A stretch of 33,977 bases of DNA from Nanobdellota archaeon (GCA_038044345.1 JBBTAG010000061.1:1-33977), one strand, 5' to 3'; counted from the first letter of the stretch, positions 6,579-33,977 are shown. The notes: generated from the letters alone by a model not told the origin. Made by a program: numbers and translations.

Positions 6579-9500
6579 TTATATTTTTTGAATGAATCCC
6601 TTCCTTGGCTTGAATATATCTCCCGATTTTGATAATTGTGATAACGAATCTTCCAATTCTATGGGCGTCATTTTTCCTTCAATTGCCTTTTCCAGTTCTT
6701 CTATGGGGATTAATTTACCAAGTCTGGACTCGAGTTGTGCTATTGTTTCTCTTACAACTAATATTTTGCTTCTTTTTCCCGCACTAATGCCCGAAGTTAT
6801 TCTGTCGATGTCATAGGTTTTTGTTTCTTCATCATAACCGACTTGAGTTAGCGATACTTTCAAGAGTTCAATGGCTTTAATGGCGTCTTCTCTTTTAACT
6901 TCGTTTCTAAGATGCATCTTAGCATGTGCTTCCGATAGCCTTATAATTCCCTCTAGTTGTCTTGCAGTTATTGCTATTGGTTTTATTGTTGATTCTGAAC
7001 CAGTTGATTGACCTCTCAATTTAACATAAAAGTTTTTTATTTCTTCAATGGCTTCGTCAGTGAGTTTCGGTTTAAATTTTCTTTTTGCGTATGAGATATA
7101 TTTTCTAAGAAGTTTTGGATTTATTGTGTCTCTAACTACCTCTTGTTTGTGTTCTTCCAATACATGGGTTGCTATAGCTTCATCCTGAACTTTGTTTGGC
7201 ATGTCTTTGATGACGAAGATGACGTCAAATCTGCTTAATAATGCTGGAGAAATATCAATTTGTTCTGGGATTGGAACATAAGGGTTGAAACGACCGAGTT
7301 TGGGATTTCCTGCAGCAAGAACGGTTGTTTCTGCTCTCAATGTTGCGTGGATGTTTGCTTTTGAGACAGTGATTGTGTTGTGGAGTATTGCTGCTTGTGA
7401 AATGAATGAGTGATTTGGTTCTATAGTAACATCATAAACCCAATTTTCATCTTCATTTTTTATGATTTCAATTCCAGAAACACGCTCCCACCCAATATCT
7501 TCTGTAAATTGTCTTAAATATTCCTTATTTTCTTCTTTTTTTATTTTGGGAAAAGCTTTTTTTAATAAACTTCGTGAAAATCCAAAGATATTTTTTCTTT
7601 TTTGGTGGTCAGAAATTATATTATAAATTTTATACTTTCCTATACTTTCTATTTTTTCTTCTTTTAGAATTTCTATTATTCTGTTATTAAATTGTTTTGG
7701 GATAACATTTTTTATTTGCCTTTTTATCTTTTTGTTTTGAATATAGTAGGAGATGATTTCATTTTTTTCTTCTGTAACAAAGCCTATATACTTTTGGAAT
7801 GAGAGAATATTATCATAATCTGTTATTCCTACTCTGAAATACTCTCTGTCTGCTGTTATGGAACTTCTTATTCTAAATCTTAGAAGTAAATCTTGTATTT
7901 GTTCAGCGAGACGCTTACTTTTAGTTTTATATCCTATTCTTATCGTCCTTTCTTTTTTGGAGACATATCCATCTCCTTCAAAAAGTGCAGATAGCATTTT
8001 GGCGATATCTTCAGATTTTCCTTTCATTGCCCACAAGGGTATCTGCTTTTCGCCAGATAATTTTAGTATTTCAGGAGATGTTTCTTTTAAGAAGCTGGCC
8101 AGTTCTGTTGAAGTGTATCTATAGCTCCAACGTGTACCATAGTGATCTATGCGTGCTTGTTTGTATGGTGCGATGTTAAATGTATTTTTCATTAATTGAT
8201 TGAAATCGTTAAGAACTCTTACATCTTTGTTAACAAAATTGATTCCAATAAATTTTTTCCTATTTATCTCGCGTGAACCTTCCGCTATAAAGTAACCTAT
8301 AATTTTAAATAATTCTGGGCCATTTTTGACTGGAATATTTATATGAATTTTAGCTCTTTCATTAATTTGCTGCGGAAGAAAGAGTTGTTCTTTTCCTTCT
8401 ATTGGCGAATAAAGTGGTATTGGAATAGGATCTCCAATTATCATCTCATCTGCTCTCTTTGTTGAAATTTTTCCATCTTTCACTGTAAATACTGGATGTT
8501 CTGGAGTAACTATTATTTCTCGCCCATGTGAGAATTTTATTTTTATAAATTTATCAAATGCTTTATGTTTACTTATTCTATTTATTTTGGTTTTATTAAT
8601 TGTTTTAAAATCAGTTGTTAAAACTTCGAGTTGATTGTATGGCAGGATAAAACAATCTTTACCTTCAATTATCTTTTCCTTATTTTCTTGAAGTAGTTTT
8701 TCAACTATTTCTCCAATTTTTACTTCTGAGCCATCTGCGAGGGTTATAACTGTATCATGATGGTAACATTGTTGCTCCATGGCTTCATGCATTGTGCTTC
8801 TATCTTGTTCAGTCATTTTTTCAATTTCATCAATACAAACAGTGCCTTTATTTGCAAGAACCATTGCTCCGGCTTCTAGACTCCAACCGCGTAAAAATTC
8901 ATCTTTAATGACTGCTGCTGTGAGACCTGCAGCAGTTGCCGCTTTTCCAGAAACGTAACGTCCTTTTGGAGCAATTGCAGATATGAACTTTAGCATAACT
9001 GATTTTGCTACTCCAGGATCACCTACAAGAAGAATGTGTATATCGCCTCGAGAAGACCCACCATCTGATTTTAATTTTTTTACTCCACCAAATAATTCTA
9101 AAAGAACGGCCTCTTTTATTCTTTCAAATCCATATATACTTGGAGCAATGCTGCTTGATAGTTTGTAATATACATTTGGGTCTGCTGCCAATTCTAGAAT
9201 TTGTTCAATAGCTTCTTCGTCAATATTTAAGTCCTCAAATGTTTCTTCTAAAGGAATTATATTATTTGCTTCTATTGCTATATCATATCTTGTGGAAATT
9301 GAACCAGTTTTTAACGGTATGGGGACTTCTTTTAAAACTCCAAATATCTTTACTTTGCTTCCAGGTGTAGTTCTTTCTTCCATTTTTGGATCAACAAGAT
9401 CTTCTTGCAGGAAGACATTGATTCTACGTGGCTGTTCTCCACCTTCAAGAGAATCTGGAGATTCTTCGATAACAAGACGTTGAGTGTCAACCATTTCTTT

Positions 9501-9998
9501 CGAAATTAATCTAAATGCTGATTTCCATCCGCAGGTACATCTGCTTGGTTCTCTGAATTTGTTATCAATTTGCAATACTGAAAGCAAGGCTCCGCAGTTT
9601 GGGCATTCAAATTTTGCATTGACAACTTGTGGTCGAACGTCGGAGGCTTGCCTAATTATTCCTTCTATCCAGAGCATTTGGTCTAGGTGCTTAGATCTTA
9701 TTTCTCTTATTTTTATTGCAACCGATTTTGGCAGATCAGTTATTCTTACTCGGATATTTTTGCCTAATCCAGAGTCATCAAGAGCATTTTCTAGGACTGC
9801 AAATGTCTGTTGAGGATTTTCAAGAACTTCTTCTGATAAACTTGGTGAATGTTCAGCCAAATGTTGAAATGGTATGTATATTACCCTTTCCCCAGTTCTG
9901 ATTGATTGACTAATTTCTTTCTTGTATGCATTAAAGAAATTTTTTGCTTCTAAGAGCATTTCCTCTTGTTTTTTTTTCTTGGGCAACACTGATTCCAT
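6579..9998 (-). CDS. mcm: MCM replicative helicase containing one intein
   Basis: Zn motif CPNCG...CTCG, Walker A GDPGVAKS, Walker B CIDEIEKM, EAMEQQ|intein|TITVSKANI, sensor-1 AAGNP, Arg finger SRFD. The ATG at 9998 is 20 nt from a TATA-like box at 10019-10026; the track start at 10013 is TTG. Confidence 0.92.
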   Translation of the reverse strand: MESVLPKKKKQEEMLLEAKNFFNAYKKEISQSIRTGERVIYIPFQHLAEHSPSLSEEVLENPQQTFAVLENALDDSGLGKNIRVRITDLPKSVAIKIREIRSKHLDQMLWIEGIIRQASDVRPQVVNAKFECPNCGALLSVLQIDNKFREPSRCTCGWKSAFRLISKEMVDTQRLVIEESPDSLEGGEQPRRINVFLQEDLVDPKMEERTTPGSKVKIFGVLKEVPIPLKTGSISTRYDIAIEANNIIPLEETFEDLNIDEEAIEQILELAADPNVYYKLSSSIAPSIYGFERIKEAVLLELFGGVKKLKSDGGSSRGDIHILLVGDPGVAKSVMLKFISAIAPKGRYVSGKAATAAGLTAAVIKDEFLRGWSLEAGAMVLANKGTVCIDEIEKMTEQDRSTMHEAMEQQCYHHDTVITLADGSEVKIGEIVEKLLQENKEKIIEGKDCFILPYNQLEVLTTDFKTINKTKINRISKHKAFDKFIKIKFSHGREIIVTPEHPVFTVKDGKISTKRADEMIIGDPIPIPLYSPIEGKEQLFLPQQINERAKIHINIPVKNGPELFKIIGYFIAEGSREINRKKFIGINFVNKDVRVLNDFNQLMKNTFNIAPYKQARIDHYGTRWSYRYTSTELASFLKETSPEILKLSGEKQIPLWAMKGKSEDIAKMLSALFEGDGYVSKKERTIRIGYKTKSKRLAEQIQDLLLRFRIRSSITADREYFRVGITDYDNILSFQKYIGFVTEEKNEIISYYIQNKKIKRQIKNVIPKQFNNRIIEILKEEKIESIGKYKIYNIISDHQKRKNIFGFSRSLLKKAFPKIKKEENKEYLRQFTEDIGWERVSGIEIIKNEDENWVYDVTIEPNHSFISQAAILHNTITVSKANIHATLRAETTVLAAGNPKLGRFNPYVPIPEQIDISPALLSRFDVIFVIKDMPNKVQDEAIATHVLEEHKQEVVRDTINPKLLRKYISYAKRKFKPKLTDEAIEEIKNFYVKLRGQSTGSESTIKPIAITARQLEGIIRLSEAHAKMHLRNEVKREDAIKAIELLKVSLTQVGYDEETKTYDIDRITSGISAGKRSKILVVRETIAQLESRLGKLIPIEELEKAIEGKMTPIELEDSLSQLSKSGDIFKPRKGFIQKI
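7377..8768 (-). mobile_element. intein (464 aa) with LAGLIDADG homing-endonuclease domain, inside mcm
   Basis: Starts with Cys (CYHHDTVITLADG) and ends HN, followed by the +1 Thr. Block B is TPEH. The two LAGLIDADG motifs are IIGYFIAEGS and LSALFEGDGYV. Removing it restores AMEQQ-TITVSKANI. Confidence 0.88.
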
Positions 9999-10088
9999 TA
10001 AATTTGAGCGCAAGGGAGATTTAAATGGTTTATTGTTTTATGTTACACTTGTTTAATGTTGGGTTGTTATTTGAGAATGGCATTTTAT

Positions 10089-19720: not shown

Positions 19721-20476
19721 ATGGCTAAGTTAATTACAATTACTTCGGGAAAGGGTGGTGTAGGAAAAACTACAACTGCAATCAATATAGGTGCTGCTCT
19801 TAATTCATTTGGAAAAGATGTTATTATTTTGGATGCCAATTTAACTACACCCAATGTTGGATTGCATTTAGGGGCTCCAATTGTTCCTGTGAGTTTGAAT
19901 CATGTTCTTCTTGGGAATGCAAAAATTGCTGACGCAATATATGAGCATGAATCTGGGACTAAAATAATTCCTAGTTCTCTTTCCATCAGGGAGTTGAGAA
20001 GGATTGACCATGGTAAATTAAAAGATGTTGGAAAGAAATTGAGAAAGATTGCAGATTATGTTATATTTGACTCTGCTGCTGGATTGGGAGAAGAGGCAAT
20101 AGCGGCAATGGAGTCTTGTGACGAATTGATTATTGTTACTAATCCTGAAATTACTGCTGTTACTGATGCTTTGAAAACAAGCAAAGTGATTGAGGAGCTT
20201 GGAAAAAGTGTAAGGGGAGTTATTGTTAACAGAGTAAGGGGAAAAAGAACCGAAATGCCTATTAGGAATATAAGAGAAATGCTTGAACTGCCTATTTTGG
20301 GCGTTGTGCCTGAAGATAAGAATATGCAATCTGCGCTCGTAATGAAGGATGCTTTGGTGCACACGCATCCGAGAAGCAAGGCAGCCATAGCTTATAGAAA
20401 TATTGCGGCACGGATTATTGGAAATGGGCAGTATAAAAAGAAGGCAAGTTTCATTGATTTTATTCTTGGAAGATAA
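19721..20476 (+). CDS. minD: MinD/ParA-family P-loop ATPase (archaeal MinD-like)
   Basis: Deviant Walker A ITSGKGGVGKTTT and Walker B-like YVIFDSAAG. Confidence 0.85.
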   Translation: MAKLITITSGKGGVGKTTTAINIGAALNSFGKDVIILDANLTTPNVGLHLGAPIVPVSLNHVLLGNAKIADAIYEHESGTKIIPSSLSIRELRRIDHGKLKDVGKKLRKIADYVIFDSAAGLGEEAIAAMESCDELIIVTNPEITAVTDALKTSKVIEELGKSVRGVIVNRVRGKRTEMPIRNIREMLELPILGVVPEDKNMQSALVMKDALVHTHPRSKAAIAYRNIAARIIGNGQYKKKASFIDFILGR

Positions 20477-22479: not shown

Positions 22480-22791
22480 CTATAGTTTAAGATTTGCAAT
22501 TTCTTCTTCTACCAATTTTTCAGCTTCATTTGTTAAGAAATGAATATCAGGATACTTCTTATCTTTCTTGTCCTTAATAAATTCAATAGATTGAGTCTTT
22601 ATTGCTTGTTTGTCTTCTTCATTCCAATTATATTTTTTAGCATCTTTAATTGCTGCATCTCTATAGGTAATTTCTTCATTTTGCAGATGATTTATAGACT
22701 CTGGTCTATTTGTGTGTTTGATTAATAAATTATGCAATACCACATTGCCTATTCTCTTTCCAAGAGTTTTTATAACGCTATTTTTTCCCAT
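22480..22791 (-). CDS. small protein coupled to the nucleotidyltransferase gene; possible toxin/HEPN-like partner (weak)
   Basis: Its start overlaps the upstream gene by 22 nt. It contains an R-x5-H stretch (RPESINH), but in an atypical N-proximal position. Confidence 0.4.
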   Translation of the reverse strand: MGKNSVIKTLGKRIGNVVLHNLLIKHTNRPESINHLQNEEITYRDAAIKDAKKYNWNEEDKQAIKTQSIEFIKDKKDKKYPDIHFLTNEAEKLVEEEIANLKL

Positions 22792-23603
22792 GGTGCTTTT
22801 TTAATTTCCTCGTCTGTTTTTTCAGATAGCTGTTTTATGTATTGCAATATTAACTTTTTTTCTGACTTGGAGGCGATATTGTTTTTTAGTCTAAATATGG
22901 TATTATTGCCTAATTCTTTATTAACACTTTCTCTCAATGATTGATTGTCCACTATTTTTTTTAAGAGCAGCCTGACTAAAAGAACATTTCTAAGAGATTG
23001 ATATATTTCATTGCCATCAGAGTCTTCATCATCTATATCGCTCCAGTCAAGTTTCATTCTCAAATCCAGTTTTGATAGTTCAGTCTTTGATGGAAGCTTT
23101 ATTTTTCCATAAATCTCTTTATAGTCTTTGAGTTGATAAATTAAAGAAGGACTATGAGAATATTCATTATAAAATGCAGATATATCAATGACTTGAATAT
23201 CCAAGTTTAAACTAAGTCTTTTAGCAGAATCAGTCAATTTCATAATTAGGTTATATTTATCTCCAGTTGAAGACCATATTTTTTTGTTTGTTATAATCAA
23301 AACATCTATATCTTTATAGTCCTTGTAATTGTTTTGAATTGCAGAACCATATATTAATATTGACCTGACTTCTTTTAAGTTTTCTAGGATAAGCTTTTTA
23401 ATTTTATTTTCAATAGATTTTGATTTTTGGTTATATTCAAGCTTGTTTAAAAGAACATGCGCATTAATCTTACTTATTTCTGTTAATTTATGTCTGATAG
23501 ACTTGCTTAGGATGTTTGACTCGTTCTGTGTCAAACTAATTCCTTTAAGTTTCTTGTTTATTATTTCTTTTTCTCTATTTGTGAGTATTGTATAATTTAC
23601 CAT
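22770..23603 (-). CDS. minimal nucleotidyltransferase (MNT/Pol-beta fold) with an N-terminal HTH-like segment and a C-terminal helical extension
   Basis: ILIYGSAIQ...YKDIDVLIIT gives the GS...DxD NTase signature. TATA-like box at 23628-23635, 24 nt upstream. Confidence 0.65.
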   Translation of the reverse strand: MVNYTILTNREKEIINKKLKGISLTQNESNILSKSIRHKLTEISKINAHVLLNKLEYNQKSKSIENKIKKLILENLKEVRSILIYGSAIQNNYKDYKDIDVLIITNKKIWSSTGDKYNLIMKLTDSAKRLSLNLDIQVIDISAFYNEYSHSPSLIYQLKDYKEIYGKIKLPSKTELSKLDLRMKLDWSDIDDEDSDGNEIYQSLRNVLLVRLLLKKIVDNQSLRESVNKELGNNTIFRLKNNIASKSEKKLILQYIKQLSEKTDEEIKKAPWEKIAL

Positions 23604-23724: not shown

Positions 23725-24228
23725 TTATTTAGCTTGCGCAGTTATAGAACCTGAAGACTGAAGATCCAAAGCAGAACCTGTTTTTGTATAGGTTACTACA
23801 ACATCTCCTCTGAAGGCTCCTTGAGCAACGTCACTAGTACACGTCATAGAAATCTTTCCAGATTTTACATTTGCTGCAATAGCTGCTGTACCTGCTCCCG
23901 TTATAGCAGTAGCACCGACTGTTGTTGGTGCATTTGGTATGCCATCACTATCTCCGCAACCAGATATACTGATTCTACTAATAGTTAGTTGTTCTCCAGC
24001 ACCATTGTATATTTCCATTTCAACTTTAGCTGTCCCAGCAAGTCCTGAAGTTACAACTGCTCCTTCTGGACTAAAAGGTTGATTTATGACAAATTTATCA
24101 GATACAAGCTTACCAGGGCTAAAAACACCATAGTATGCTAGAACTCCTATCGCAATAATAGCAATCAAGATAGCCCATCCATAGGTCATCAAGAACTCCA
24201 TTGCCGCTTGTCCTTTTTTATTTTTCAT
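23725..24228 (-). CDS. type IV pilin-like protein (probable major pilin), class III signal peptide
   Basis: MKNKKG|QAAMEFLMTYGWAILIAIIAIGVL. Gly/Ala/Thr/Ser-rich body. Strong GGAGG 5 nt upstream of the ATG. Own promoter and terminator. Confidence 0.75.
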   Translation of the reverse strand: MKNKKGQAAMEFLMTYGWAILIAIIAIGVLAYYGVFSPGKLVSDKFVINQPFSPEGAVVTSGLAGTAKVEMEIYNGAGEQLTISRISISGCGDSDGIPNAPTTVGATAITGAGTAAIAANVKSGKISMTCTSDVAQGAFRGDVVVTYTKTGSALDLQSSGSITAQAK

Positions 24229-24252
24229 GTTTACCTCCTTTTAAGTATTTTA

Positions 24253-24266
24253 AAGCATAAATGCTT
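24253..24266. promoter_or_regulatory. palindrome aagcat-aa-atgctt at or near the pilin transcription start, with a third half-site at 24318-24326
   Basis: Read directly. The sites flank the TATA-like box at 24291-24298. Confidence 0.4.
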
Positions 24267-24324
24267 AATGCGTAATAGAAGACTATAGGGTATATAAACA
24301 TTTTTATCGACAAATTTTTAAGCA

Positions 24325-25266
24325 TTAAGAACAGGTTGCGACGTTGTATATGATTTTATGTGCATCATCTAAAAGCAAGTTAGCTGGGGCATTTGTTCCA
24401 CTTACTGTGCAAAATGTCGCTGGATTTGTCAAATCAAAATAAATATGATCCACCATAGGTCTTCCCACATAGACGGTTAAGCCTTGCGAGTTAAAGGTGT
24501 TTATGTTGACTAAGGATTCAACACCATATGGACTTTCTGCCGCTAAGTTGCCTTTAAGTCTGTCTATAAAACTAGGCGCTTCGGTTGATGCAATGTAATA
24601 TGAGTTTTCTAAATGAAGAGAGAGGTTTTTCAAATCGGTATTGGAGAGAGTATATGGGGATTTGGAATACTTATTTGGAATTTTTCCTGCTGTGTTAAGG
24701 AGGTAAACTGGATCTTCAAATCTTTCTATTGGTATGTATGCTTTGACTATCAGAGTTTTATTCCAATAGGCGAGATTTGATTTGTCACTCATTGTTAAAT
24801 TAGCTGTCAATATAATTGCAATGTTCCAGGGATCTTCCTGAGTCATGTTCAGTTTGGCACCTGTTATGTTTATTTCAATATTCATTTGCTTAGCATCTGT
24901 TTGCGTCGAGCTTAGAAAGTCAGAGAATTTTATTCCATCATATACATTGCCTTGGCTTTGAGAGTAAAGGGTTCCATTGAAAAAACCTTCTGATGCGAGT
25001 TCCTCCGGGTTTTCAATGTATCTTTTTGAATCAACTACTTTTTTTTCAAATAGAAATATTGTTCTGAATGTTGAGACATACATCTGTCTTTCTAGGTCTT
25101 TTTCAACGGATGAGAGGAAAGAATTCATTGTAGAAACTCTTTTTTGAACCGATTGTCTGTATTCTGCCTGCAAGTAAAAGGTTGATGACACTAATAATAG
25201 GGATAGTAACATAATTACTATTATTGTGAAGAAAAATCCTTTTTTGTTCTTGATGTTTAAGACCAT
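24325..25266 (-). CDS. pilin-like protein (minor pilin candidate), class III signal peptide
   Basis: MVLNIKNKKG|FFFTIIVIMLLSLLLV. 10-nt overlap with the upstream gene. Confidence 0.65.
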   Translation of the reverse strand: MVLNIKNKKGFFFTIIVIMLLSLLLVSSTFYLQAEYRQSVQKRVSTMNSFLSSVEKDLERQMYVSTFRTIFLFEKKVVDSKRYIENPEELASEGFFNGTLYSQSQGNVYDGIKFSDFLSSTQTDAKQMNIEINITGAKLNMTQEDPWNIAIILTANLTMSDKSNLAYWNKTLIVKAYIPIERFEDPVYLLNTAGKIPNKYSKSPYTLSNTDLKNLSLHLENSYYIASTEAPSFIDRLKGNLAAESPYGVESLVNINTFNSQGLTVYVGRPMVDHIYFDLTNPATFCTVSGTNAPANLLLDDAHKIIYNVATCS

Positions 25267-27893
25267 GTTCTTATTTGAATATCTAATTTTGTTAAAAATG
25301 GTATTCCAGAAATAGATGTGGTTTCTGCTCCTAGATTGTCTTCTGTAATTTTTGAATCTATCTTTCCATCACCATCGAAATCAAGTATGGATAGAAGATC
25401 GTAGGCTGCCTGCTGCAATGCGTCATTCGGATCGCAATTCGGAATGTTACAGCCAGTGTTTGAATACTTGCAGTTATTTGAACCAGAGTAGGACGCTGGG
25501 ATTTTCAGCGTTGAGGAAGTATCATCAGAGAAAGAAATACTCCAGTTGCATCCTTCTGCTGAAGCTACAATTGTTGTATTGTATGAGGAAATATTCTTTA
25601 TTATAGTGTAAATTATTTTATTGTACTCAGAACCCGATGAAGTGTTTGTTGCAGAGACACCAGTTGTCAATGTGATATTGTTTGTGCCTAATGAGTTCAA
25701 TGCTGAAACTGGAATATTTATTGAATATGGGTCTCCAAGTGTTGAGAAGTCTGAGCCATACTCGCTAAGATTATATATTGGAACTTCGTTTGCGCTTACA
25801 ACGGAAGTCCATCTTGGGCCTGAATATGATGCGACTTTAGCATCCAATATTTGTGAATTTGGTGGAATAGTAAAGTTACCGTTTGTAGAATTGGCGAACT
25901 TTTTCTCTGTATTTAAAATTAATCCGTATGGATTTGGTTCGTTAACAATTCCAAATTGTATATATGAGTCAGAGTATAACTCTGTAGAAATTTCAGAACC
26001 CGCTATGGCTGTTTGTTCACGATATGTTACTTTTAAAATATAGGACGATATATTTTTATAAATATTTTCTAATTCTTCGACATTTGAGCTGTGGTAATAT
26101 TTGCCTCCGGTCATATTTGCAATTTCTTCTAGAAGTTGACTTGCTTTATTGCAGTTTCCTACTAATCCGAAACCAATTGTGAAAATTGTAATGTCTTGGT
26201 CTCTTTTTGAACGATTAGCTGAATAAATGGCGTTGTTAATAGGATCTAAGCACTTATCATCATTACATCCCTCATAAACGCACGAACCGCCACCACCCTG
26301 AAAATCACAGTATCCATCGCAACTTTTTGTTCCGTATATGCTAGAATTACTTGTGCAGGAACCATCGGCACAATGAGTTGGGAGTCCATCAGTCATTAAA
26401 ACTATGAATTTTCTTTTTGGTGTGCTTGGAATTGTACTTGAATTTAAAATATCATATCCTCTATTGATTGCGCAGGCAAGACAGGTTTTTTCTTTTCCTT
26501 GTTGAGTATAACTATCTATTGCAGTTATAATAGATGTTGGATCACTTGGATTTACAATACTTGATTCAATCTTATCATCGAATATCCATATTGGCCAGAG
26601 TCTTGGACCGGTGACATTAAATATAGAATTTACAAATGTTTTATCCAGGCATTTGGCCAGAGAGGTTTTCCTGGCGTCTGGATTTAAGGCTAAGTTATTA
26701 CAATCTATAGCGGCACTACCTTGAGATGTATCATCATTTATTGCCTTCTTCATACTACCAGACCAATCTGTGACCAGAACTATGTCTGCATCACTTGATG
26801 ATGTTTTTCCAAATGCATCTAAAAATAATCTTATTGGAATTGTCTTTTTGTTTAAATCGGTGTAATCAATCAATGGACTTATGTCACTATTTGGAATTGT
26901 CAAAACTGTTTCTCCAATATGCGTTTGATTAAAAATTGTAGTGTTGCCTATCTTTAGAACCAATGGGAGGGATACTGAGCTATTATAATGGATATATGCG
27001 TCTATAGTGTTTAGTTCAGTTGGAATATAGAAGCCGTCGTAAATATTAATTATCCCCCTTATTCCTGAAAAATATTTTTTATTTTCAATTTCATAAATGC
27101 TTGTGCTGTTGAAGTTTATTTTAATGAACCCTCCGCTGATACGCAGCTTTTCTCCATTTATTCCTCTTAATGAAACTAAATTGTTTCCTGAATGAAAATC
27201 TGTTGTAGGTATGCTATATTTTATTGGTTGAAATTCTGATACTGATTTTTCGTAATTGCCTTGAAGGACTTCATTAACATAGATTGAGAAATTTATGTTT
27301 GTTGCTATCTCAACTTCTGCCAATTGGATATTACCTATGTAGTTTATAGGCGCGGTTATATTTCCATCTCCAGTATATCCTCCAAAGAAATAATATTTTG
27401 TTTGGCTATTGCTTGATAAAAATGCTCTTGCTGAATGACCAGAAACATTTTCACCTTCTCCTCTGATAGCAGTTATTTTTTGCCTTGTAACATCAACATT
27501 TTTAGATTCTTCAAGGGATGTTACGTTTTTTGAAGCTAACAATGTGTTTCCGAACCAAATGCCTATATTTTTATTGCTTGGGACATCGATTAGCATTATT
27601 TGAGACAGAATTATTGCTTTTGTTCTATTTGTATAATAGAATTCTCCAATTTGTTCTATGACTGGTTTATTTAAGTTGACAATTGCTCCTTCCGCTATCC
27701 ACTCTTGGACTTGCAAATTGTTAACTTCTCCTATCTTCAAGTTAGACATAGTTATTAGGAGGTCATAATGAATCTTATTTGTGGGCTTTTGATAGTTTAT
27801 TACCGGGACTGCGATTATTAAAAGAGCGAGGATTATAGTCAAGGCTATTATTGCGTCAATCGTGAAAAAAATTCCCTTCTTTTTTATTTCCAT
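25257..27893 (-). CDS. large pilin-like vWA-domain protein (putative tip adhesin)
   Basis: MEIKKKG|IFFTIDAIIALTIILALLI class III signal. MIDAS DWSGS in DIVLVTDWSGSM, then LMTDG and IFTIGFG. Cys-rich insert between them. Confidence 0.8.
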   Translation of the reverse strand: MEIKKKGIFFTIDAIIALTIILALLIIAVPVINYQKPTNKIHYDLLITMSNLKIGEVNNLQVQEWIAEGAIVNLNKPVIEQIGEFYYTNRTKAIILSQIMLIDVPSNKNIGIWFGNTLLASKNVTSLEESKNVDVTRQKITAIRGEGENVSGHSARAFLSSNSQTKYYFFGGYTGDGNITAPINYIGNIQLAEVEIATNINFSIYVNEVLQGNYEKSVSEFQPIKYSIPTTDFHSGNNLVSLRGINGEKLRISGGFIKINFNSTSIYEIENKKYFSGIRGIINIYDGFYIPTELNTIDAYIHYNSSVSLPLVLKIGNTTIFNQTHIGETVLTIPNSDISPLIDYTDLNKKTIPIRLFLDAFGKTSSSDADIVLVTDWSGSMKKAINDDTSQGSAAIDCNNLALNPDARKTSLAKCLDKTFVNSIFNVTGPRLWPIWIFDDKIESSIVNPSDPTSIITAIDSYTQQGKEKTCLACAINRGYDILNSSTIPSTPKRKFIVLMTDGLPTHCADGSCTSNSSIYGTKSCDGYCDFQGGGGSCVYEGCNDDKCLDPINNAIYSANRSKRDQDITIFTIGFGLVGNCNKASQLLEEIANMTGGKYYHSSNVEELENIYKNISSYILKVTYREQTAIAGSEISTELYSDSYIQFGIVNEPNPYGLILNTEKKFANSTNGNFTIPPNSQILDAKVASYSGPRWTSVVSANEVPIYNLSEYGSDFSTLGDPYSINIPVSALNSLGTNNITLTTGVSATNTSSGSEYNKIIYTIIKNISSYNTTIVASAEGCNWSISFSDDTSSTLKIPASYSGSNNCKYSNTGCNIPNCDPNDALQQAAYDLLSILDFDGDGKIDSKITEDNLGAETTSISGIPFLTKLDIQIRTWS

Positions 27894-28360
27894 ATGTATA
27901 TGTTTAACATTGATGATTTATTTTTGTAAATTACCATTCTTGATATGAAGAAAAGATTGTTTGGGTCATTGTATTGTTTGCCCATACAGTATGGCAAGCT
28001 TGCTGGCATGGAATCTGAAAAATTGAAACAAAAATCGTATTTTGTGTGCATAAGTGAACGCTGTTCTTCATAATTTATGATGCTTAAGTTTTTTAATTTG
28101 TCCTCATCTATTTTGTTATTCGACAAAATTCCAGGCACTATGACATCATCCTTATTCCAGTTTTTGGGATAACCTTCTGAAAGAAGGATATCAGCAACGG
28201 CATTTCCATCGTATTGCATTGCATTTAAAATATCTTCACTTTCTGCTTTATAGTTTATTGAATAAAAAAAGAGAAGTGAAAGTGCTGCTACAAAGATAAC
28301 TATTCCTATCATTAAATCAAATGACCAGGCTTGTCCATTCTTCCTTTTATTTTTTACCAT
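27884..28360 (-). CDS. pilin-like protein (minor pilin candidate), class III signal peptide
   Basis: MVKNKRKNG|QAWSFDLMIGIVIFVAAL. 10-nt overlap with the downstream vWA gene. Confidence 0.6.
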   Translation of the reverse strand: MVKNKRKNGQAWSFDLMIGIVIFVAALSLLFFYSINYKAESEDILNAMQYDGNAVADILLSEGYPKNWNKDDVIVPGILSNNKIDEDKLKNLSIINYEEQRSLMHTKYDFCFNFSDSMPASLPYCMGKQYNDPNNLFFISRMVIYKNKSSMLNIYIWK

Positions 28361-28432
28361 TCTCTCTTTTAATTTTTAGATATAAGAATACAATCTTGAT
28401 ATTATTTAAATCTCTCTGTAAGGCTTGGAAAA

Positions 28433-29152
28433 TTAAGATTTTGGTAAACTTGAGGAGCTTTTTGAAATAGTTATTCCTTTATTTCCAATGTCTAATTTAT
28501 ATATTTTGTCTGAATGATTTGTCCCGCGCATTTTCAATATTTCGATAAAGCGTTCTCTTTTGTCTTTGTTTCTTAAAAAATAAATTTGAATGATTGAATC
28601 TGATTCAAATTCAATTGCCTTTGTCTGCGCCTTATCGCTAAGACTTTCTTCCGAAGGATTTAATTCTAATGTTAGAAGGGAGGTGCAATTCCATTTTCTA
28701 ATCATATTGAATAGATTTAGGGCAGCTTCCCTTTTTGTCAATTCGTCTTCAAAAAGAAGGGCAAACGAAGTTATGCTGTCAATTACTAAACGGGATATTT
28801 TTTTGCTGATAATTGTGGTTTCAATTGAACCTCCGCCTTCTTCAAGCATTGTTTTAACTTTGGCCGGGGCGTATTCTAAAAATGTAAAAAGACCTTTTTT
28901 TTCATAATCTGCGAGATCCCAGCCGAACTCCAGCATGTGCTGATAAAATTGCTGTTTATTTTCTTCAAAAGTAACAAGGAGACATTTTTCTTTTCTTTTC
29001 ATGCAATTGACGAGAAACTGAGTTGCAAATATAGTTTTTCCAGAACCCGGGCCGCCGACAATGAGATTGGTTGAACTATTTTCAAAACCGCCTTCAACTA
29101 GTTTGTCAAAATTAGAGATTCCGAATGGGACTCTATTTTTTAGTTTATGCAT
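28433..29152 (-). CDS. KaiC/RecA-superfamily ATPase (ArlH/FlaH-like)
   Basis: Walker A GGPGSGKT, Walker B-like RLVIDSI, single KaiC-like domain. The ATG at 29152 is 21 nt from a TATA-like box at 29174-29181 (track start 29173 is TTG). Confidence 0.75.
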   Translation of the reverse strand: MHKLKNRVPFGISNFDKLVEGGFENSSTNLIVGGPGSGKTIFATQFLVNCMKRKEKCLLVTFEENKQQFYQHMLEFGWDLADYEKKGLFTFLEYAPAKVKTMLEEGGGSIETTIISKKISRLVIDSITSFALLFEDELTKREAALNLFNMIRKWNCTSLLTLELNPSEESLSDKAQTKAIEFESDSIIQIYFLRNKDKRERFIEILKMRGTNHSDKIYKLDIGNKGITISKSSSSLPKS

Positions 29153-29218
29153 ATGTTTATTTGTAAAAAGCAATATAAAAATCTATCTACGAAAGATTTT
29201 TTTTCATTTATCGTTATA

Positions 29219-29239
29219 CCCTATGGTCTTGCCATAGGG
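29219..29239. repeat. hairpin ccctatgg-tcttg-ccataggg (8-bp perfect stem)
   Basis: Read directly. Shares the 9-nt core ggtcttgcc with 29346-29366. Confidence 0.85.
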
Positions 29240-29345
29240 AGAAAGCCAGGCAGGATTACAATTGGAAGTAAAATAATTATCTAATGTATGATAAGGCTAA
29301 GTTGTTGCAGGAGATAATGAATGTATTGGATTTCGTCTAAAGATG

Positions 29346-29366
29346 CCACTAGGTCTTGCCTCGTGG
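29346..29366. repeat. hairpin ccactagg-tcttg-cctcgtgg (7 of 8 bp)
   Basis: Same loop and closing pairs as 29219-29239. Three stem positions are changed on both arms so that pairing is kept. Confidence 0.8.
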
Positions 29367-29379
29367 AGCTTCACAAAAA

Positions 29380-30390
29380 CTAAGAAAATAATGTTAATAC
29401 AAATTTTGACAGAATTAATTGAATTAGGAAAAATATGCTTATGCTTATTATTGCTACTGGAATTATATAATTGATTCCGCTTTTTTCTTCACCTTTGTTT
29501 ACAATACCTATTACCAGTGAAGACAGTACAGAGATTACTATTAAGTATATGACAGCAAAATAATTTATAAATGCTGTTGTGATGTTTATCTTTCCCATTG
29601 TAAATGGAAGATTGGCTGTGGCGGTAGTGTCAATTTCAGGCACACTTGACATGATGGTGGTTATCGTTTTTACTAAAATAGAAGAAAGACCGAATAGAAC
29701 TGGTGCGCCGACGGCAACTGCAAAAAATACAAAGATAACGTACATTAAGACATTGGAAGCTGCTCTTTTTTCAACGAATGCTCTTTCTCGCATGTTCATT
29801 GCTGTTTCTTCCAGAAGCACGGATAAATTGCCTCCAGAAGCGATGCCTGTAATTATAAGTGCGAGCGTCTTCTTTATTTTTTCTGATTTTATGCGTTCAC
29901 CCATTTCATATAATGCAAGGGTTATTTCCTTTCCAGTCATAATATCTTTGCCTAGACGCAGAATTTCTTCATCGAGTGGAGCAAATTCTTTTCTTGAGCT
30001 GACTAAGAGTGCCTTGTCGATGGTCATGCCAGCTCTTAAATTGGCTGCCATAAGTTCGACGAAATCTGGAAAGACATCTTCTATTTTTTTTATGCGCTGG
30101 GTTGCACGATATTTTTCTCTATAAATTATATAGGCGTTTGTTGATATTAAAACTGCGACTAATATTAAGAGTGATGAGATTATCTTTTGTGTAATAATAT
30201 AGTTCAATGCGGCAAGGAATATTGAGATGCCTATTAGCAGTATGCTTATCAGTAATCTCTTCTTTTTCTTTTTTACAGCGTCTGGCAAATGAGTAGTTTT
30301 AATTTCCTGCTTTTTCTTCTCCAGCAATTCTTTTTCTTTTCTAACTCTACTTTCCAATTCTTCTTTTTTTAATTGTGCTTTTGTTTTCAT
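29380..30390 (-). CDS. T2SSF-domain pilus platform protein (TadC/ArlJ C-half-like)
   Basis: FPDFVELMAANLRAGMTIDKAL T2SSF signature, polytopic. ATGA overlap with the upstream gene. Confidence 0.75.
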   Translation of the reverse strand: MKTKAQLKKEELESRVRKEKELLEKKKQEIKTTHLPDAVKKKKKRLLISILLIGISIFLAALNYIITQKIISSLLILVAVLISTNAYIIYREKYRATQRIKKIEDVFPDFVELMAANLRAGMTIDKALLVSSRKEFAPLDEEILRLGKDIMTGKEITLALYEMGERIKSEKIKKTLALIITGIASGGNLSVLLEETAMNMRERAFVEKRAASNVLMYVIFVFFAVAVGAPVLFGLSSILVKTITTIMSSVPEIDTTATANLPFTMGKINITTAFINYFAVIYLIVISVLSSLVIGIVNKGEEKSGINYIIPVAIISISIFFLIQLILSKFVLTLFS

Positions 30391-31280
30391 AGTAAGCTAG
30401 GCCTCAATGATTTCATTATGCCAAGGAACATTATTTGTATAAAAACCACGAAAAGAAAGACGGCTGCAAACATTAATTTTGAGGTTGCAGCTGAAAGACT
30501 TACCATCGATGCAATGACTGTCAAAAAAGTTATGCTTAACGCAGGGATGATTACTGCCATAAGCATGTAAAACATGAATAAAGGGTTTAATCTATTTCCA
30601 TAAGTTTGCATTTGAAGAAGTTGATCTTGTCTAAGAGATTTAATGCTTTCTCTTATAATTGTTGCAATGTTGCTTCCTGCACGCATACCATTACTTATTT
30701 GCCAAAGTGTTCTTCTGAAGAAAATAGAAGGATTTTTATCACCTATGTCTTCTAGAACTTCTTCTTGGGCGTAACCAGCGTTTATGTTTTTAACCGCTTT
30801 TTTAAATTCTAGACTTAATGATTCATAATCGGCAGCAGAAATGTTTACCATAATGTTGAAGAGGGGAATACCTGAATTTAATTGAACTAACATATCTTCA
30901 AGTCCAGGAATTAGGTTTTTTTCTATGTTTCTTTGCTTTCTTGAACTATAAAGTCTAGGATAATTTACTTGTGTGGAGTAAACAAAAATTCCAAAAATAA
31001 GGGAAATTAGAAAACTAATACCAATCATTCCAAGGAAAGCAGCATTTGGCACTGCTATTAATAGAATTGTACTTAGAACTATGAAAAGGGATGTGAAGTA
31101 TCCTAGAGCATATTTGAAACAGATGGAGATATATTCCTCTCTTGTAAGGTCAAGATCAGAATTTATCAAATATGCATTAAGTTTAGTGTCGCTTTTTGGT
31201 TTTAGAGGCAATCTTAAAAATTTTGTTCTCGTCTTTATTTTTTCTATATCTGAAAATGTAAATGGTATTTTGAATTTCAT
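30387..31280 (-). CDS. T2SSF-domain pilus platform protein (TadB/ArlJ N-half-like)
   Basis: LEDMLVQLNSGIPLFNIM... single T2SSF domain, polytopic. ATGA overlap with the ATPase gene. Confidence 0.75.
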   Translation of the reverse strand: MKFKIPFTFSDIEKIKTRTKFLRLPLKPKSDTKLNAYLINSDLDLTREEYISICFKYALGYFTSLFIVLSTILLIAVPNAAFLGMIGISFLISLIFGIFVYSTQVNYPRLYSSRKQRNIEKNLIPGLEDMLVQLNSGIPLFNIMVNISAADYESLSLEFKKAVKNINAGYAQEEVLEDIGDKNPSIFFRRTLWQISNGMRAGSNIATIIRESIKSLRQDQLLQMQTYGNRLNPLFMFYMLMAVIIPALSITFLTVIASMVSLSAATSKLMFAAVFLFVVFIQIMFLGIMKSLRPSLL

Positions 31281-33103
31281 GTTTTTATTGAAAGTATTGA
31301 ACTTATATCATTGTTTTTTATGTGATTAGCTAATAGTTCCTGGTTTTTATAATATAGGTTAAGAACTTTTCCAAAGTCATTTAGGCTTCTTATGTTATTT
31401 TTAATCATCCAAGATAAAATTCTTCTCTTTTCTGCCATGTCTTTTTCAATTTCTTCTTGTCCCATACCTGTGTTTCTTTGCAGCGATTCAAAAAACTTTT
31501 GACTTTCGCTGTGCTTGATTAGTTTGTCTTCTTCTGGCAACCAACGATAAAGTATGTTTGATCTTGCCTGGTCTTTTTCTGCATCAAATTCAGCGATTTG
31601 CAATATTCTTCTAATCCCCTTTTTTCTGTCACGAAACATTACTATATTAAGATTTACGGCTTTTAATAAGTTTGGGGGGACGTCTAATGGTGGGTTTACC
31701 AAACGAGAAATGGTTTCTGGAGCAGAATCTGCGTGGACAGTGGCATAAACTGAGTGTCCAGTATGCATTGCTTCGAATAAAACCATTGCTTCTTCTTTTC
31801 TTCTCATTTCTCCTAGAACAATTCTATCCGGCCTCATACGCAATGAATTGACGAGAAGGTCAAGCATACTGACTTCTCCTTTTCCTTCTGGGTTTGGAGT
31901 TCTTGTGACGAGAGGAGTCCAATATAAGAAATCTGGAAGCATTAATTCTCTGGTGTCTTCTATGCTTATTATTCTTTGGTTTGGGGGGATGAATGGGAGA
32001 CAGGCGTTTAGGAAAGAGGTTTTACCTGAAGCAGTTCCTCCTGAAAAGAGAATATTCATTTCGAATTCAATGGCAAGCCATATTAACGCTGCAGTTTCAA
32101 GGTCGCAGGTTTTATTGTTAATTAAATCTATTATTGTGTAAGGGTCTCGAGCGAATTTTCTTATTGTAATTGTGTTCCCTTTTGTATCTACAGGATAAAG
32201 AACAGCGTTTATTCTGTCTCCAGTCAATAAATGAGCATCTAGCAGCGGACTGAGCACAGTTATTTGTTTTCCGACGCGTCTTGCAATTATGTTGGAATAA
32301 TTTAAAATATCTTCTTCTTGTTCAATTTTCATATTAGTTGTCAGCCAACCGTATTTTTTGCTGTAAACTCTTATCGGCTCTTTGGCAGAAGAGATGACAA
32401 TTTCTTCTAAATTTGGATCATTTATTAAGAATTCTATGTCGCCCAAGCCGAGCATGTCTTGGATTAATTTACCGATTAAGAATTGCTTTACTTCTTCATC
32501 AAGATTTGGAAGCTTTGCTTGGATAAGATTTGTGGCATCCTCAAGGAATCTTTTTTTAATTGATTCGAAAAATTCAGGATTAATAAGTTCTTTCATCGTG
32601 ATGTTTGTTAATGATATCAGGTCGTGTCTTACATCATCTAGAAGCATTGAAGTTGCAAGGTCTATTTTTGGAACAAATAAATTGTAATAAACACCTAAAT
32701 CGTTTCTTATTATGGAAACTTCTACTTTTGCTCCATCGACGTTTATTTCATATTTTTCTAAGACGCCTATTTTTTTCTGCATAAGAGTTTTTTCTTGGTT
32801 TTCCGATTTTTTGATGTTTGTGGATTGTTTTTCAGATTTATTTAAATGGTGATGGTGTTTTTGATTAATTGCAGTCTTAGGTTCAGTTGTGTTTTGGATA
32901 ATGTTTTGTTTTGGCATATGTGATGGCAATTCAGGCAGGCTTTTGCCACCTAGAAGTCTATTTCTTTCTCTCAGAATAGGCACTTTTTGAGGATTGTTTA
33001 AATTACCTAATTTTTCCGAGAGCAATTGCTTTTCTTTTTCAATGTCTTCCTCACTTAAACTAGGGACATCTTTTTCTTTTTTTATTGTTTTTTTCTTTTT
33101 CAT
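31277..33103 (-). CDS. type II/IV secretion-family ATPase (ArlI/PilB/VirB11-like) with a low-complexity N-terminal extension
   Basis: Walker A GGTASGKTS, Asp box IISIEDTRELML, Walker B RPDRIVLGEMRRKEE, His box TGHSVYATVHA. Confidence 0.88.
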   Translation of the reverse strand: MKKKKTIKKEKDVPSLSEEDIEKEKQLLSEKLGNLNNPQKVPILRERNRLLGGKSLPELPSHMPKQNIIQNTTEPKTAINQKHHHHLNKSEKQSTNIKKSENQEKTLMQKKIGVLEKYEINVDGAKVEVSIIRNDLGVYYNLFVPKIDLATSMLLDDVRHDLISLTNITMKELINPEFFESIKKRFLEDATNLIQAKLPNLDEEVKQFLIGKLIQDMLGLGDIEFLINDPNLEEIVISSAKEPIRVYSKKYGWLTTNMKIEQEEDILNYSNIIARRVGKQITVLSPLLDAHLLTGDRINAVLYPVDTKGNTITIRKFARDPYTIIDLINNKTCDLETAALIWLAIEFEMNILFSGGTASGKTSFLNACLPFIPPNQRIISIEDTRELMLPDFLYWTPLVTRTPNPEGKGEVSMLDLLVNSLRMRPDRIVLGEMRRKEEAMVLFEAMHTGHSVYATVHADSAPETISRLVNPPLDVPPNLLKAVNLNIVMFRDRKKGIRRILQIAEFDAEKDQARSNILYRWLPEEDKLIKHSESQKFFESLQRNTGMGQEEIEKDMAEKRRILSWMIKNNIRSLNDFGKVLNLYYKNQELLANHIKNNDISSILSIKT

Positions 33104-33615
33104 TGTGATAGTATTATTTCAGGGTCTCCAAATTGAGGATAATACATGCTTGCTAAATTGCCGCTTTCCAATATTTTTGCCCACTCCGTAGCAGTTTCTC
33201 TTGGAATATGAAAAACTTTGGATATGGATGCAATTTTCAGATGTTTTTTTTCTTGTAAAATTCCGTATAATACATCTATGTCTGTTTGTTTTTTTTCGTG
33301 AGTATAGTATTTTTTAGTAATGTAAAGGTTAATTATTTCTTTTCTAAGGTCGATTTTTTGTTTTAATATCATAAAAACAGTTCCAAGAATTAGAAACATC
33401 CATTCGAGCACAATAAACATCTCTGAGAAGAATGGAAAAACTGCGTTGTTCTGATTTTCTGGAATTTTTTTAATTGAAAGACCGGAAATGGAATTTGTTC
33501 CTGCAGATTTTGAGTTGTCATTTAAACTGATAGTTAAATAAATGGCTCCGTGTACAACTGATAATATGAAAATTACAAATAGAACGATTCCAAAGTGGTT
33601 TTGTTTTTTTTCCAT
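33100..33615 (-). CDS. two-TM membrane protein with a C-terminal wHTH-like domain, first gene of the assembly operon
   Basis: TMs at about residues 8-28 and 65-85. C-terminal LKIASISKVFHIPRETATEWAKILESGNL. ATGA overlap with the ATPase gene. Confidence 0.55.
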   Translation of the reverse strand: MEKKQNHFGIVLFVIFILSVVHGAIYLTISLNDNSKSAGTNSISGLSIKKIPENQNNAVFPFFSEMFIVLEWMFLILGTVFMILKQKIDLRKEIINLYITKKYYTHEKKQTDIDVLYGILQEKKHLKIASISKVFHIPRETATEWAKILESGNLASMYYPQFGDPEIILSQ

Positions 33616-33626
33616 ACTCTTTTTTT

Positions 33627-33645
33627 ATTCTCTCGCAGAGAGAAT
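33627..33645. promoter_or_regulatory. perfect inverted repeat attctctc-gca-gagagaat in the divergent pilus promoter region
   Basis: Read directly. Lies between a TATA-like box (33647-33654) and the operon ATG at 33615. Confidence 0.45.
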
Positions 33646-33708
33646 GTTTAAATATAATGTATTTCTTTGTATTAGTAGGTGGGGCATTATATAAATCTTA
33701 TTAATAAA

Positions 33709-33977
33709 ATGAAAAAGGGGAAAAAAGGGCAGATAAGCACGGAATATTTGATAGTGATGGGTTTCGTCACATTCATGGTAATTTCATTGATGGGCATTGC
33801 TTTTCTCTATGTTGGACAGATAAGAGACAATATGAAGATGAATCAAATTAATACTTTTGGGAAAAAAATAGTCAATTCGGCTGAAACTGTTTATTTTGCT
33901 GGGAATCCTTCAAGAGCGACGGTTTTATTGAATATTCCTCAAGGAGTTCAGAATATTGTTGTTGCAGGTGCAGAGGA
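33709..33977 (+). CDS. pilin-like protein, class III signal peptide (3' end beyond the right edge; not in the ORF track)
   Basis: Hand translation MKKGKKG|QISTEYLIVMGFVTFMVISLMGIAFLYVGQ... The frame stays open to the window end. Q-x-S-x-E pattern after the predicted cleavage site. Confidence 0.7.
   Translation, partial: MKKGKKGQISTEYLIVMGFVTFMVISLMGIAFLYVGQIRDNMKMNQINTFGKKIVNSAETVYFAGNPSRATVLLNIPQGVQNIVVAGAE

Follow-up and report, generated by a model that had tools for sequence, protein, structure and literature searches.

A lineage-typical type IV pilus locus with a candidate vWA tip adhesin in a DPANN archaeon of Pacearchaeota/Woesearchaeota type

What kind of surface machine is encoded at the end of contig JBBTAG010000061.1 of a Nanobdellota archaeon (GCA_038044345.1), and what would the cell use it for? 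The contig belongs to a metagenome-assembled genome (MAG) and was analysed over its entire length of 33,977 bp, to which we refer as the window; genes for pilin-like proteins, an assembly ATPase and its platform occupy the last ~10 kb. A preliminary description, made from the sequence alone, had recognised there a type IV pilus-like locus that took up about 30% of the window and had assigned the rest to archaeal information processing. Both points hold, the share of the locus being 30.2% and the remainder containing, by reading of the translations, an MCM-like open reading frame (ORF) of 1144 amino acids (aa), ValRS, aRF1 and aIF2-beta. We consider that the locus probably encodes the lineage-typical adhesive type IV pilus of a Pacearchaeota/Woesearchaeota-type DPANN archaeon, a filament that would be primed by minor pilins and would carry an adhesin with a von Willebrand factor A (vWA) domain at its tip. 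Attachment to a host cell is a plausible use of such a filament, as far as sequence can tell.

The type IV filament superfamily is marked by a T2SSE ATPase with intact motifs together with T2SSF platform proteins, and both are encoded here. The ORFs were checked against the translations of the window and their domains were sought by Pfam and NCBIfam profile searches. In the ATPase (Pfam T2SSE, 3.4e-34) the Walker A, Asp box, Walker B and His box are all intact, and the N-terminus carries a low-complexity extension of ~110 aa. The platform is divided between two proteins; the first (Pfam T2SSF, 1.3e-13) aligns with positions 12-248 of 555 of the NCBIfam ArlJ model, which is its N-terminal half, and the second (T2SSF, 1.9e-15) with positions 186-462 of 465 of the ArlJ model, its C-terminal half. 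Three ATGA overlaps run through the assembly operon, at the 171/608 aa, 608/297 aa and 297/336 aa junctions, so that the first platform gene has one at its 5′ and one at its 3′ end. Further down, the genes for the 158-, 878- and 313-aa proteins overlap by 10 nt at both of their junctions. The ten ORFs of the preliminary description, nine of them complete and one cut off, are all present at the positions it gave, and its main structural claims were borne out: an ATGA-coupled assembly operon from 33615 to 29380, an ArlI/VirB11-type ATPase followed by two T2SSF genes, a KaiC-like ATPase gene standing apart from that operon, and a coupled class III signal peptide trio that includes a vWA giant.

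What the machine would assemble is indicated by its pilin-like proteins. Among the orthologues (46-64 for each of six families), the residue at position -1 is G, A or S in at least 96% and that at position -2 is K or R in 84-100%, and the leaders of 5-8 residues are followed by a hydrophobic stretch. With a slash marking the predicted cleavage site, the leaders read [KR]G/QAAMEFLMTYGWAIL in pil167, [KR][GA]/QISxEYL in pil5 (G/A/S at -1 in 64 of 64), [KR][AG]/QSAIEF in c5, [KR][GA]/Q[AG]WGFDL in pil158 (A/G/S at -1 in 51 of 51) and [KR]G/[IM]FFT in pil313 (G/A/S at -1 in 46 of 46), and the vWA orthologues begin with [KR][GA]/[VI]FFSxDAL in 52 of 52. The hallmarks of class III signal peptides therefore hold in all six families. 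As to whether these putative signals would fail class III predictors, a question raised by the preliminary description, the features are conserved and orthologues do reach the Pfam models Class_IIIsignal and Pilin_N: the former matches 18 of 31 members of a mixed pil5 and c5 orthologue set (best 24.2 bits, against a cut-off of 23.7) and the latter 15 of 80 pil167 homologues (best 5.9e-5). A few members of a mixed pil158/pil313 set match DUF7287 (E 1.5e-6), and further weak links of the pilin-like families lead to DUF7266, DUF7287 and, from c5, to TadE; pil313 found no Pfam or NCBIfam family, and some pil167 homologues bear the Joint Genome Institute (JGI) label “UPF0333 family”. The five pilin-like genes counted in the preliminary description, one of them diverging from 33709, are indeed those of the window, but the full locus was thereby undercounted, since relatives carry a sixth family, c5 (~130 aa, with a class III signal), next to pil5. 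In this genome c5 would fall just past the contig end.

One of these proteins, pil167, is the likely major pilin, because its N-terminal helix is almost invariant, its globular domain is variable, its gene has expression signals of its own, and it is duplicated in several relatives. Mean pairwise identity amounts to 91% over residues 6-38 and to 35% elsewhere, with a hypervariable loop at 96-112, and the AlphaFold2 model (mean predicted local distance difference test score, pLDDT, 78) shows an N-terminal helix (5-32) followed by a beta-sandwich. When this model was searched with Foldseek, pilus subunits of Pyrobaculum arsenaticum, P. calidifontis and Sulfolobus (Aap) were found among the top nine matches at E ~0.02-0.03, a ranking that supports the predicted architecture and does not demonstrate homology. 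By direct reading of the sequence, the TATA-like TTTATATA lies 62 nt before the gene and GGAGGT 5 nt before its ATG, and a long T-rich tract follows the stop codon (~23724-23680); the Shine-Dalgarno site and oligo-T tail of the preliminary description are thus both in place. A scan for sigma-70 promoters and intrinsic terminators gave no enrichment, with a model that is unsuited to archaea. It should be added that the NCBI record annotates this protein as 154 aa (P0241, 100% identity, 92% coverage); the deposited version lacks the class III signal peptide because its annotation starts at an internal Met.

The largest of the six, the 878-aa protein, is our candidate tip adhesin. It has a vWA domain (Pfam VWA, 1.7e-8), and its AlphaFold2 model (mean pLDDT 82) begins with a membrane helix at the N-terminus and a small region of helices, after which come a beta-rich part at ~110-360, the vWA domain at ~369-623 and a second beta-rich part at ~637-877. 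In Foldseek, ITIH1 came top (E 1e-10) and Streptococcus sanguinis PilB (7B7P) third (E 8e-9), with Mfa5, a tip protein of type V pili, among the best. The residues of the metal ion-dependent adhesion site (MIDAS), D376, S378, S380, T470 and D502, are kept in 60-69 of 73 homologues. Homologue sizes range from ~800 to ~1150 aa (P0125, P0138, P0189, P0230, P0232 and others), and in P0125 (1124 aa), the sole longer one that was aligned, an insert of ~275 aa sits in a loop of the vWA domain (521-545) that is cysteine-rich and modelled with low confidence here. The precomputed Pfam matches of the longer homologues include Laminin_G_3, PF14870, PF13948 and PF02973. Such inserts suggest module swapping, a pattern that fits an adhesin able to exchange the modules that set its specificity. 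The closest parallel, S. sanguinis PilB, is a type IV pilin of two modules; its vWA domain has a functional MIDAS, and the protein is a demonstrated adhesin, probably located at the pilus tip. Both proteins combine a class III leader, a hydrophobic helix and a vWA domain with a complete MIDAS; the archaeal one is, however, twice as large, bears additional beta-rich domains before and after the vWA domain and shows no evident pilin head, and at 13-16% identity the likeness is one of architecture and not of orthology. In being encoded among several minor pilins, the vWA protein would also be analogous to PilY1. The published survey of modular pilins started from InterPro IPR012902 and describes bacterial species only, and our literature search returned nothing linking DPANN pili to vWA proteins.

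The cluster is not peculiar to this genome. A set of 80 related genome loci was compared by tblastn and by clustering of all their ORFs, with many of the loci cut by contig ends (Table 1). Relatives of the ATPase at 60-87% identity run to thousands, the named ones coming from MAGs of Pacearchaeota, Woesearchaeota or Nanoarchaeota, where they are annotated as TadA, CpaF or FlaI. The typical gene order, with arrowheads giving direction, is c5 < pil5 < HTH-membrane > ATPase > T2SSF > T2SSF > KaiC > pil158 > vWA > pil313 > pil167, HTH standing for helix-turn-helix; a frequent variant has the pil158/vWA/pil313 trio on the opposite side, adjoining c5, and ribosomal protein L15e and a type IA topoisomerase are frequent neighbours of the cluster. 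The closest relative (L081, ATPase 87% identical) is collinear with the window and continues beyond its end with a full-length pil5 (144 aa), c5 (134 aa; L081:3338-3742, minus strand), a small ORF and the topoisomerase. Because the same order recurs in Pacearchaeota, Woesearchaeota and Nanoarchaeota loci and the closest relative is collinear, the cluster is a vertically inherited, lineage-wide trait. Domains, signal peptides and synteny thus support the earlier view that the locus is type IV pilus-like and the archaeon of DPANN type; the novelty which that view implied was not upheld, since the cluster recurs in all these loci and conserved pilus loci have been published for these very lineages.

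Table 1. Genes and signals of the pilus locus, with the occurrence of each family among the 80 related loci (the slash in leader sequences marks the predicted cleavage site)
Feature	Position	Strand	Basis	Occurrence in related loci
c5, pilin-like, sixth family				59/80
pil5, pilin-like, incomplete at contig end, 89 codons	33709..33977	+	ORF, class III signal peptide MKKGKKG/QISTEYL	66/80; adjoins operon
171-aa HTH-like membrane protein gene	33100..33615	-	ORF; ATGA-coupled to ATPase gene	77/80; always directly upstream of ATPase
608-aa T2SSE/VirB11 superfamily assembly ATPase gene	31277..33103	-	ORF, Pfam T2SSE	80/80
Platform protein 1 gene, 297 aa, one T2SSF domain	30387..31280	-	ORF, Pfam	78/80 (T2SSF); 152 ORFs in all, normally two per locus
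Platform protein 2 gene, 336 aa, one T2SSF domain	29380..30390	-	ORF, Pfam	as platform protein 1
KaiC-family ATPase gene, single-domain	28433..29152	-	ORF, Pfam KaiC	60-61/80; sometimes inverted
pil158, 158-aa pilin-like, first of coupled trio	27884..28360	-	ORF, leader RKNG/QAWSFDL	52/80
878-aa vWA protein with class III signal, middle of trio	25257..27893	-	ORF, Pfam VWA	48/80
pil313, 313-aa pilin-like, last of trio	24325..25266	-	ORF, leader NKKG/FFFT	46/80
pil167, stand-alone 167-aa pilin	23725..24228	-	ORF, leader MKNKKG/QAAMEFLMTYGW...	46/80; duplicated in several
pil167 expression signals	24233..24298	-	TATA-like TTTATATA at 24298-24291; Shine-Dalgarno GGAGGT at 24238-24233; read from sequence	

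Two further proteins accompany the motor in most of these loci. The KaiC-like protein (Pfam KaiC, 1.9e-55) has a Walker A, an FEE catalytic pair and a Walker B, and against the PDB it scores 183 bits with KaiC, 109 with the single-domain archaeal PH0186 and only 25 with FlaH/ArlH. Because of this difference we regard it, on sequence grounds, as a KaiC-family ATPase and not as an ArlH orthologue; by analogy, its role may nevertheless be akin to that of ArlH. Its gene, which is transcribed on its own, is separated from the second platform gene by a 206-bp spacer (29174-29379), and a start at the ATG at 29152 is likelier than one at the TTG at 29173. The spacer contains two hairpins with a common GG-CAAGA-CC core, and GGCAAGACC occurs in it twice and nowhere else in the window (0.09 expected). 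As a candidate structured RNA the spacer was set aside, for its fold z-score is only -1.85 and the motif at that place is common only to the closest relative. The second partner, the 171-aa protein encoded first in the operon, spans the membrane with two transmembrane (TM) helices; a G-x-SGFSIG motif on its external side is conserved and its C-terminal part is an HTH-like domain, in keeping with the membrane HTH-type protein of the preliminary description, although matches to HTH models of Pfam are weak and confined to orthologues (HTH_11/HTH_DeoR, best E 0.008). It matched no Pfam or NCBIfam family at curated thresholds and had no relative in the PDB, yet the family is coherent, with ~720 representative clusters at E <= 1e-3. 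It could be a membrane anchor or a regulator of the motor, and we found no prior description of a two-TM/HTH-like membrane family coupled to the ATPase.

To which of the known filaments, then, is this locus nearest? Against solved structures the ATPase scores 239 bits with AfGspE (2OAP, over 385 residues), 186 with Sulfolobus FlaI and 165 with Caulobacter CpaF. Its best NCBIfam match is the FlaI equivalog at 276 bits, below the cut-off of 550; the TadA-family model TIGR03819 gave 171 bits, under its cut-off of 373, and the bindosome ATPase BasE 141 bits against a cut-off of 1000. Pfam PilB3_C, a name that points to PilB3-type pilus ATPases, is above its cut-off in a 74%-identical homologue and has no match in the window ATPase itself. 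In the 2016 census AfGspE belongs to Clade 2 (arCOG01817), and PilB3 is the Clade 2 pilus ATPase of Haloferax volcanii. Among the references compared, the ATPase thus seems nearest to the euryarchaeal Clade 2/PilB3-type pilus ATPases, a tentative placement.

The likeness to Clade 2/System 2, represented by H. volcanii PilB3-PilC3 with its PilA1-6 adhesion pilins and by the AfGspE locus of Archaeoglobus fulgidus, goes beyond the ATPase and the PilB3_C domain of its homologues. According to the 2016 census, KaiC-family ATPases occur in archaeal pilus operons, major pilins of PilA type are encoded on their own, and many Clade 2 loci have two genes resembling tadC; published accounts of this class also place KaiC-family ATPases in or near the operon and mention large adhesin-like proteins. 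The present locus likewise has a stand-alone candidate major pilin with a highly conserved N-terminal hydrophobic helix. As for the platform, System 2 is given one gene in the 2026 census, which also notes its large adhesin-like proteins, and Clade 2 often two in that of 2016; the present locus has two. On the other hand, neither the two-TM/HTH-like protein nor a vWA protein with a class III signal is among the described accessories, and the distance in sequence is large, as the AfGspE score over 385 residues indicates.

With Epd/System 1 (Clade 1; Methanococcus maripaludis), which the 2026 census defines by two platform genes and also records in DPANN archaea, the locus shares the two-gene platform, pilins of the Q-x-S-x-E class III motif family (Pfam PF04021/UPF0333) and the presence of many minor pilins plus adhesin-like proteins. 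It differs in gene order and accessory set and in having no EppA-type peptidase gene within the locus. Moreover, the Epd major pilin has no globular domain, whereas pil167 is modelled with a beta-sandwich head; this predicted head argues against membership of Epd/System 1, whose description the locus does not match in its major pilin. The same census reports some DPANN loci of type 4A with two platform genes and a PilY-like adhesin. The Aap and Ups pili of Sulfolobales offer a single link, namely the weak match of the Aap pilin 8Q30 to the pil167 family profile (E 0.054) and to the pil167 structural model.

The bacterial Tad/Flp system resembles the locus in its order of ATPase, two single-domain platform genes and pseudopilins, in leaders of the form G/xxxxE[FY], in the TadA/CpaF annotation that NCBI gives to the homologues and in the weak TadE match of c5; TadG has moreover been discussed as a vWA-containing pilus component (2016 census). 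Yet CpaF scores below the archaeal references, TIGR03819 stays under its cut-off, no secretin, TadV or TadZ is found in the locus, and the pilin, with ~160 aa and a globular head, is not of Flp size. The locus is therefore neither an archaellum, to which we return below, nor a bacterial-type Tad system. Tentatively, and from sequence comparison, the best fit is a Clade 2/PilB3-like motor whose platform is split and whose set of accessory proteins is specific to the lineage.

How far is such a combination new? The preliminary description had held that the gene set matches no canonical system. In so far as none of the characterised pilus classes that we came across has this gene order, this stands; however, the split platform and the KaiC partner are already documented, because published surveys describe both in archaeal pilus loci. 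Hamm et al. reported type IV pilus loci that are conserved in Pacearchaeota, Woesearchaeota and Nanoarchaeota and contain CpaF, TadC, FlaF, PilA and a P-loop NTPase; either of these loci might correspond to the present one. The locus is thus an ordinary member of a known filament family, widespread in its lineage. What we found no prior description of is a class-III-signal protein of ~880 aa whose vWA domain has a conserved MIDAS and whose insertion site is variable, besides the membrane partner of the ATPase mentioned above. Perhaps the cluster represents a subsystem of its own among archaeal type IV filaments, specific to DPANN and not simply System 1, System 2 or 4A, which would be defined by that undescribed partner together with a vWA/MIDAS tip adhesin whose cysteine-rich loop and swapped lectin-type modules would set host or surface specificity in Pacearchaeota and Woesearchaeota. 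This proposal we hold to be doubtful. If it were true, it would offer a concrete molecular way into the question of how uncultured DPANN cells select their hosts and keep hold of them.

Other machines could be built from much the same genes. A reduced archaellum, a rotary swimming organelle in which the KaiC-like protein would take the part of ArlH and the small pilin-like proteins that of the ArlF/ArlG stator, would agree with FlaI as the best NCBIfam match of the ATPase and with a single-domain KaiC-like ATPase beside the motor genes. But that match reaches only half of the equivalog cut-off, AfGspE outscores FlaI among solved ATPases, and KaiC outscores FlaH many times over as the relative of the KaiC-like protein (KaiC246). 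Furthermore, no protein of the locus matches the models of ArlF, ArlG, ArlCDE, ArlX or archaellin, and ArlJ is one gene where the platform here is split in two. We have therefore rejected the archaellum on gene content, namely the sub-threshold FlaI match, the closer AfGspE and the low FlaH score, and find it hardly credible. The locus might instead encode a short pseudopilus similar to a “bindosome”, a stub that presents or releases the vWA protein and other proteins with class III signals and never grows into a long pilus. Type IV filament machineries of archaea are described as functionalising binding proteins that carry class III signals; five of the six pilin-like families do resemble minor accessory subunits, the vWA protein has no canonical pilin head, and the ATPase has its match to BasE. 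That match, however, is far below its cut-off and also below the scores with FlaI, TadA and AfGspE; Pfam and NCBIfam searches found no substrate-binding proteins in the locus; and the near-invariant polymerisation helix of pil167, its strong Shine-Dalgarno site and its duplications form the pattern of an abundant filament subunit. Such a stub is accordingly unlikely. A pilus for DNA uptake of the competence type, or for DNA exchange between cells, feeding a nucleotide-auxotrophic symbiont and adhering only secondarily, would use the same machinery as an adhesive pilus, so that the two are indistinguishable by gene content, and type IV pili and competence genes have been discussed together in the literature on ultra-small groundwater organisms. 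Still, no ComEC/DprA-like or Ced-like genes are present in the window or among the conserved neighbours, and the conserved MIDAS vWA module, with the lectin-type inserts of its homologues, points to the binding of proteins or glycans; we judge a main role in DNA transfer very unlikely.

The adhesive pilus has its own difficulties. The five pilin-like proteins of the window itself match no Pfam or NCBIfam pilin model; of the profile searches proposed in the preliminary description, those for T2SSE, T2SSF, KaiC and VWA were successful, but the class III model found none of these five. The Foldseek search with the pil167 model gave no match at E <= 0.001, those to solved archaeal pilins being non-significant (best such E 0.022), and a sequence search of the PDB with pil167 found nothing. 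After the N-terminal helix of the vWA protein, its model has no recognisable canonical pilin module. A prepilin peptidase, which the preliminary description had proposed to seek by extending the contig, was found neither in the Pfam-scanned ORFs of the window, multi-TM ones included, nor in the 4 kb added by the closest relative, and a crude search for GxGDx[KR] in multi-TM proteins within 10 kb on either side of the 80 loci returned platform proteins only. Finally, the tentative clade assignment of the ATPase is drawn from comparison with three solved structures and from a single Pfam domain seen in homologues, and not from a phylogeny. All these points weigh against an adhesive pilus, which we nevertheless retain as the probable reading.

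If the locus does encode an adhesive pilus, its assembly may be pictured as follows; 1- the six prepilin families, five of them encoded within the window and the sixth just past its end, would be inserted into the membrane and cut after the conserved G/A at position -1 by a peptidase encoded elsewhere, 2- the T2SSE ATPase, as a hexamer, would dock on a platform formed by the two single-domain T2SSF proteins, probably with help from the two-TM/HTH-like protein, acting as anchor or regulator, 3- the trio of 158, 878 and 313 aa, made by coupled translation and probably joined by the divergent pilin pair, would prime assembly and end up at the tip, where a metal-dependent MIDAS vWA adhesin would be presented with its variable loop setting ligand specificity, 4- pil167, expressed separately and strongly, would polymerise below the tip via its near-invariant N-terminal helix to give the filament and 5- by analogy with ArlH at the archaellum, the KaiC-family ATPase would modulate the motor.

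The surroundings of the locus deserve a few remarks. The GC content of the window is 0.31-0.36 and a tRNA-Asn is its only Rfam match. At 3.2 kb from the pilus locus, a P-loop ATPase of MinD/ParA type (Pfam CbiA, ParA, AAA_31) is encoded at 19721-20476 on the plus strand; Clade 2 pili were predicted in the 2016 census to employ a stand-alone FleN/MinD ATPase. Between the pil167 gene and that for ribosomal protein L15e, at 22480-23603 on the minus strand, lie a 277-aa nucleotidyltransferase of Pol-beta type and an overlapping ORF of 103 aa, a pair that is also kept in the closest relative (L081:14374-15497). The MCM-like ORF (6579-10013, minus strand, 1144 aa) seems to be broken up by a large insert that resembles an intein with a homing-endonuclease region, to judge from the translation only. 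Two ORFs of ~200 aa on the plus strand, at 3368-4006 and 4769-5362, close with a hydrophobic helix and, after it, a tail rich in Arg and Lys; no convincing family match was obtained for either, and they may be further surface-anchored proteins.

The locus bears on how DPANN archaea find and hold other cells. To our knowledge, neither Pacearchaeota nor Woesearchaeota has cultured members. Since the locus is a lineage-wide surface-filament machine, it names concrete candidates, namely the protein that is probably the major pilin, a probable tip adhesin whose metal site is conserved and whose loop is swappable, and two uncharacterised partners of the motor. These candidates can be used in metaproteomics, for antibodies or cryo-electron tomography on enrichments and in heterologous binding assays. 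Our analysis leaves the general picture of archaeal type IV pili unchanged; what it contributes is a conserved and clearly bounded example from a lineage that has been little studied, and the idea of a modular pilin with a vWA adhesin is extended from bacteria to archaea.

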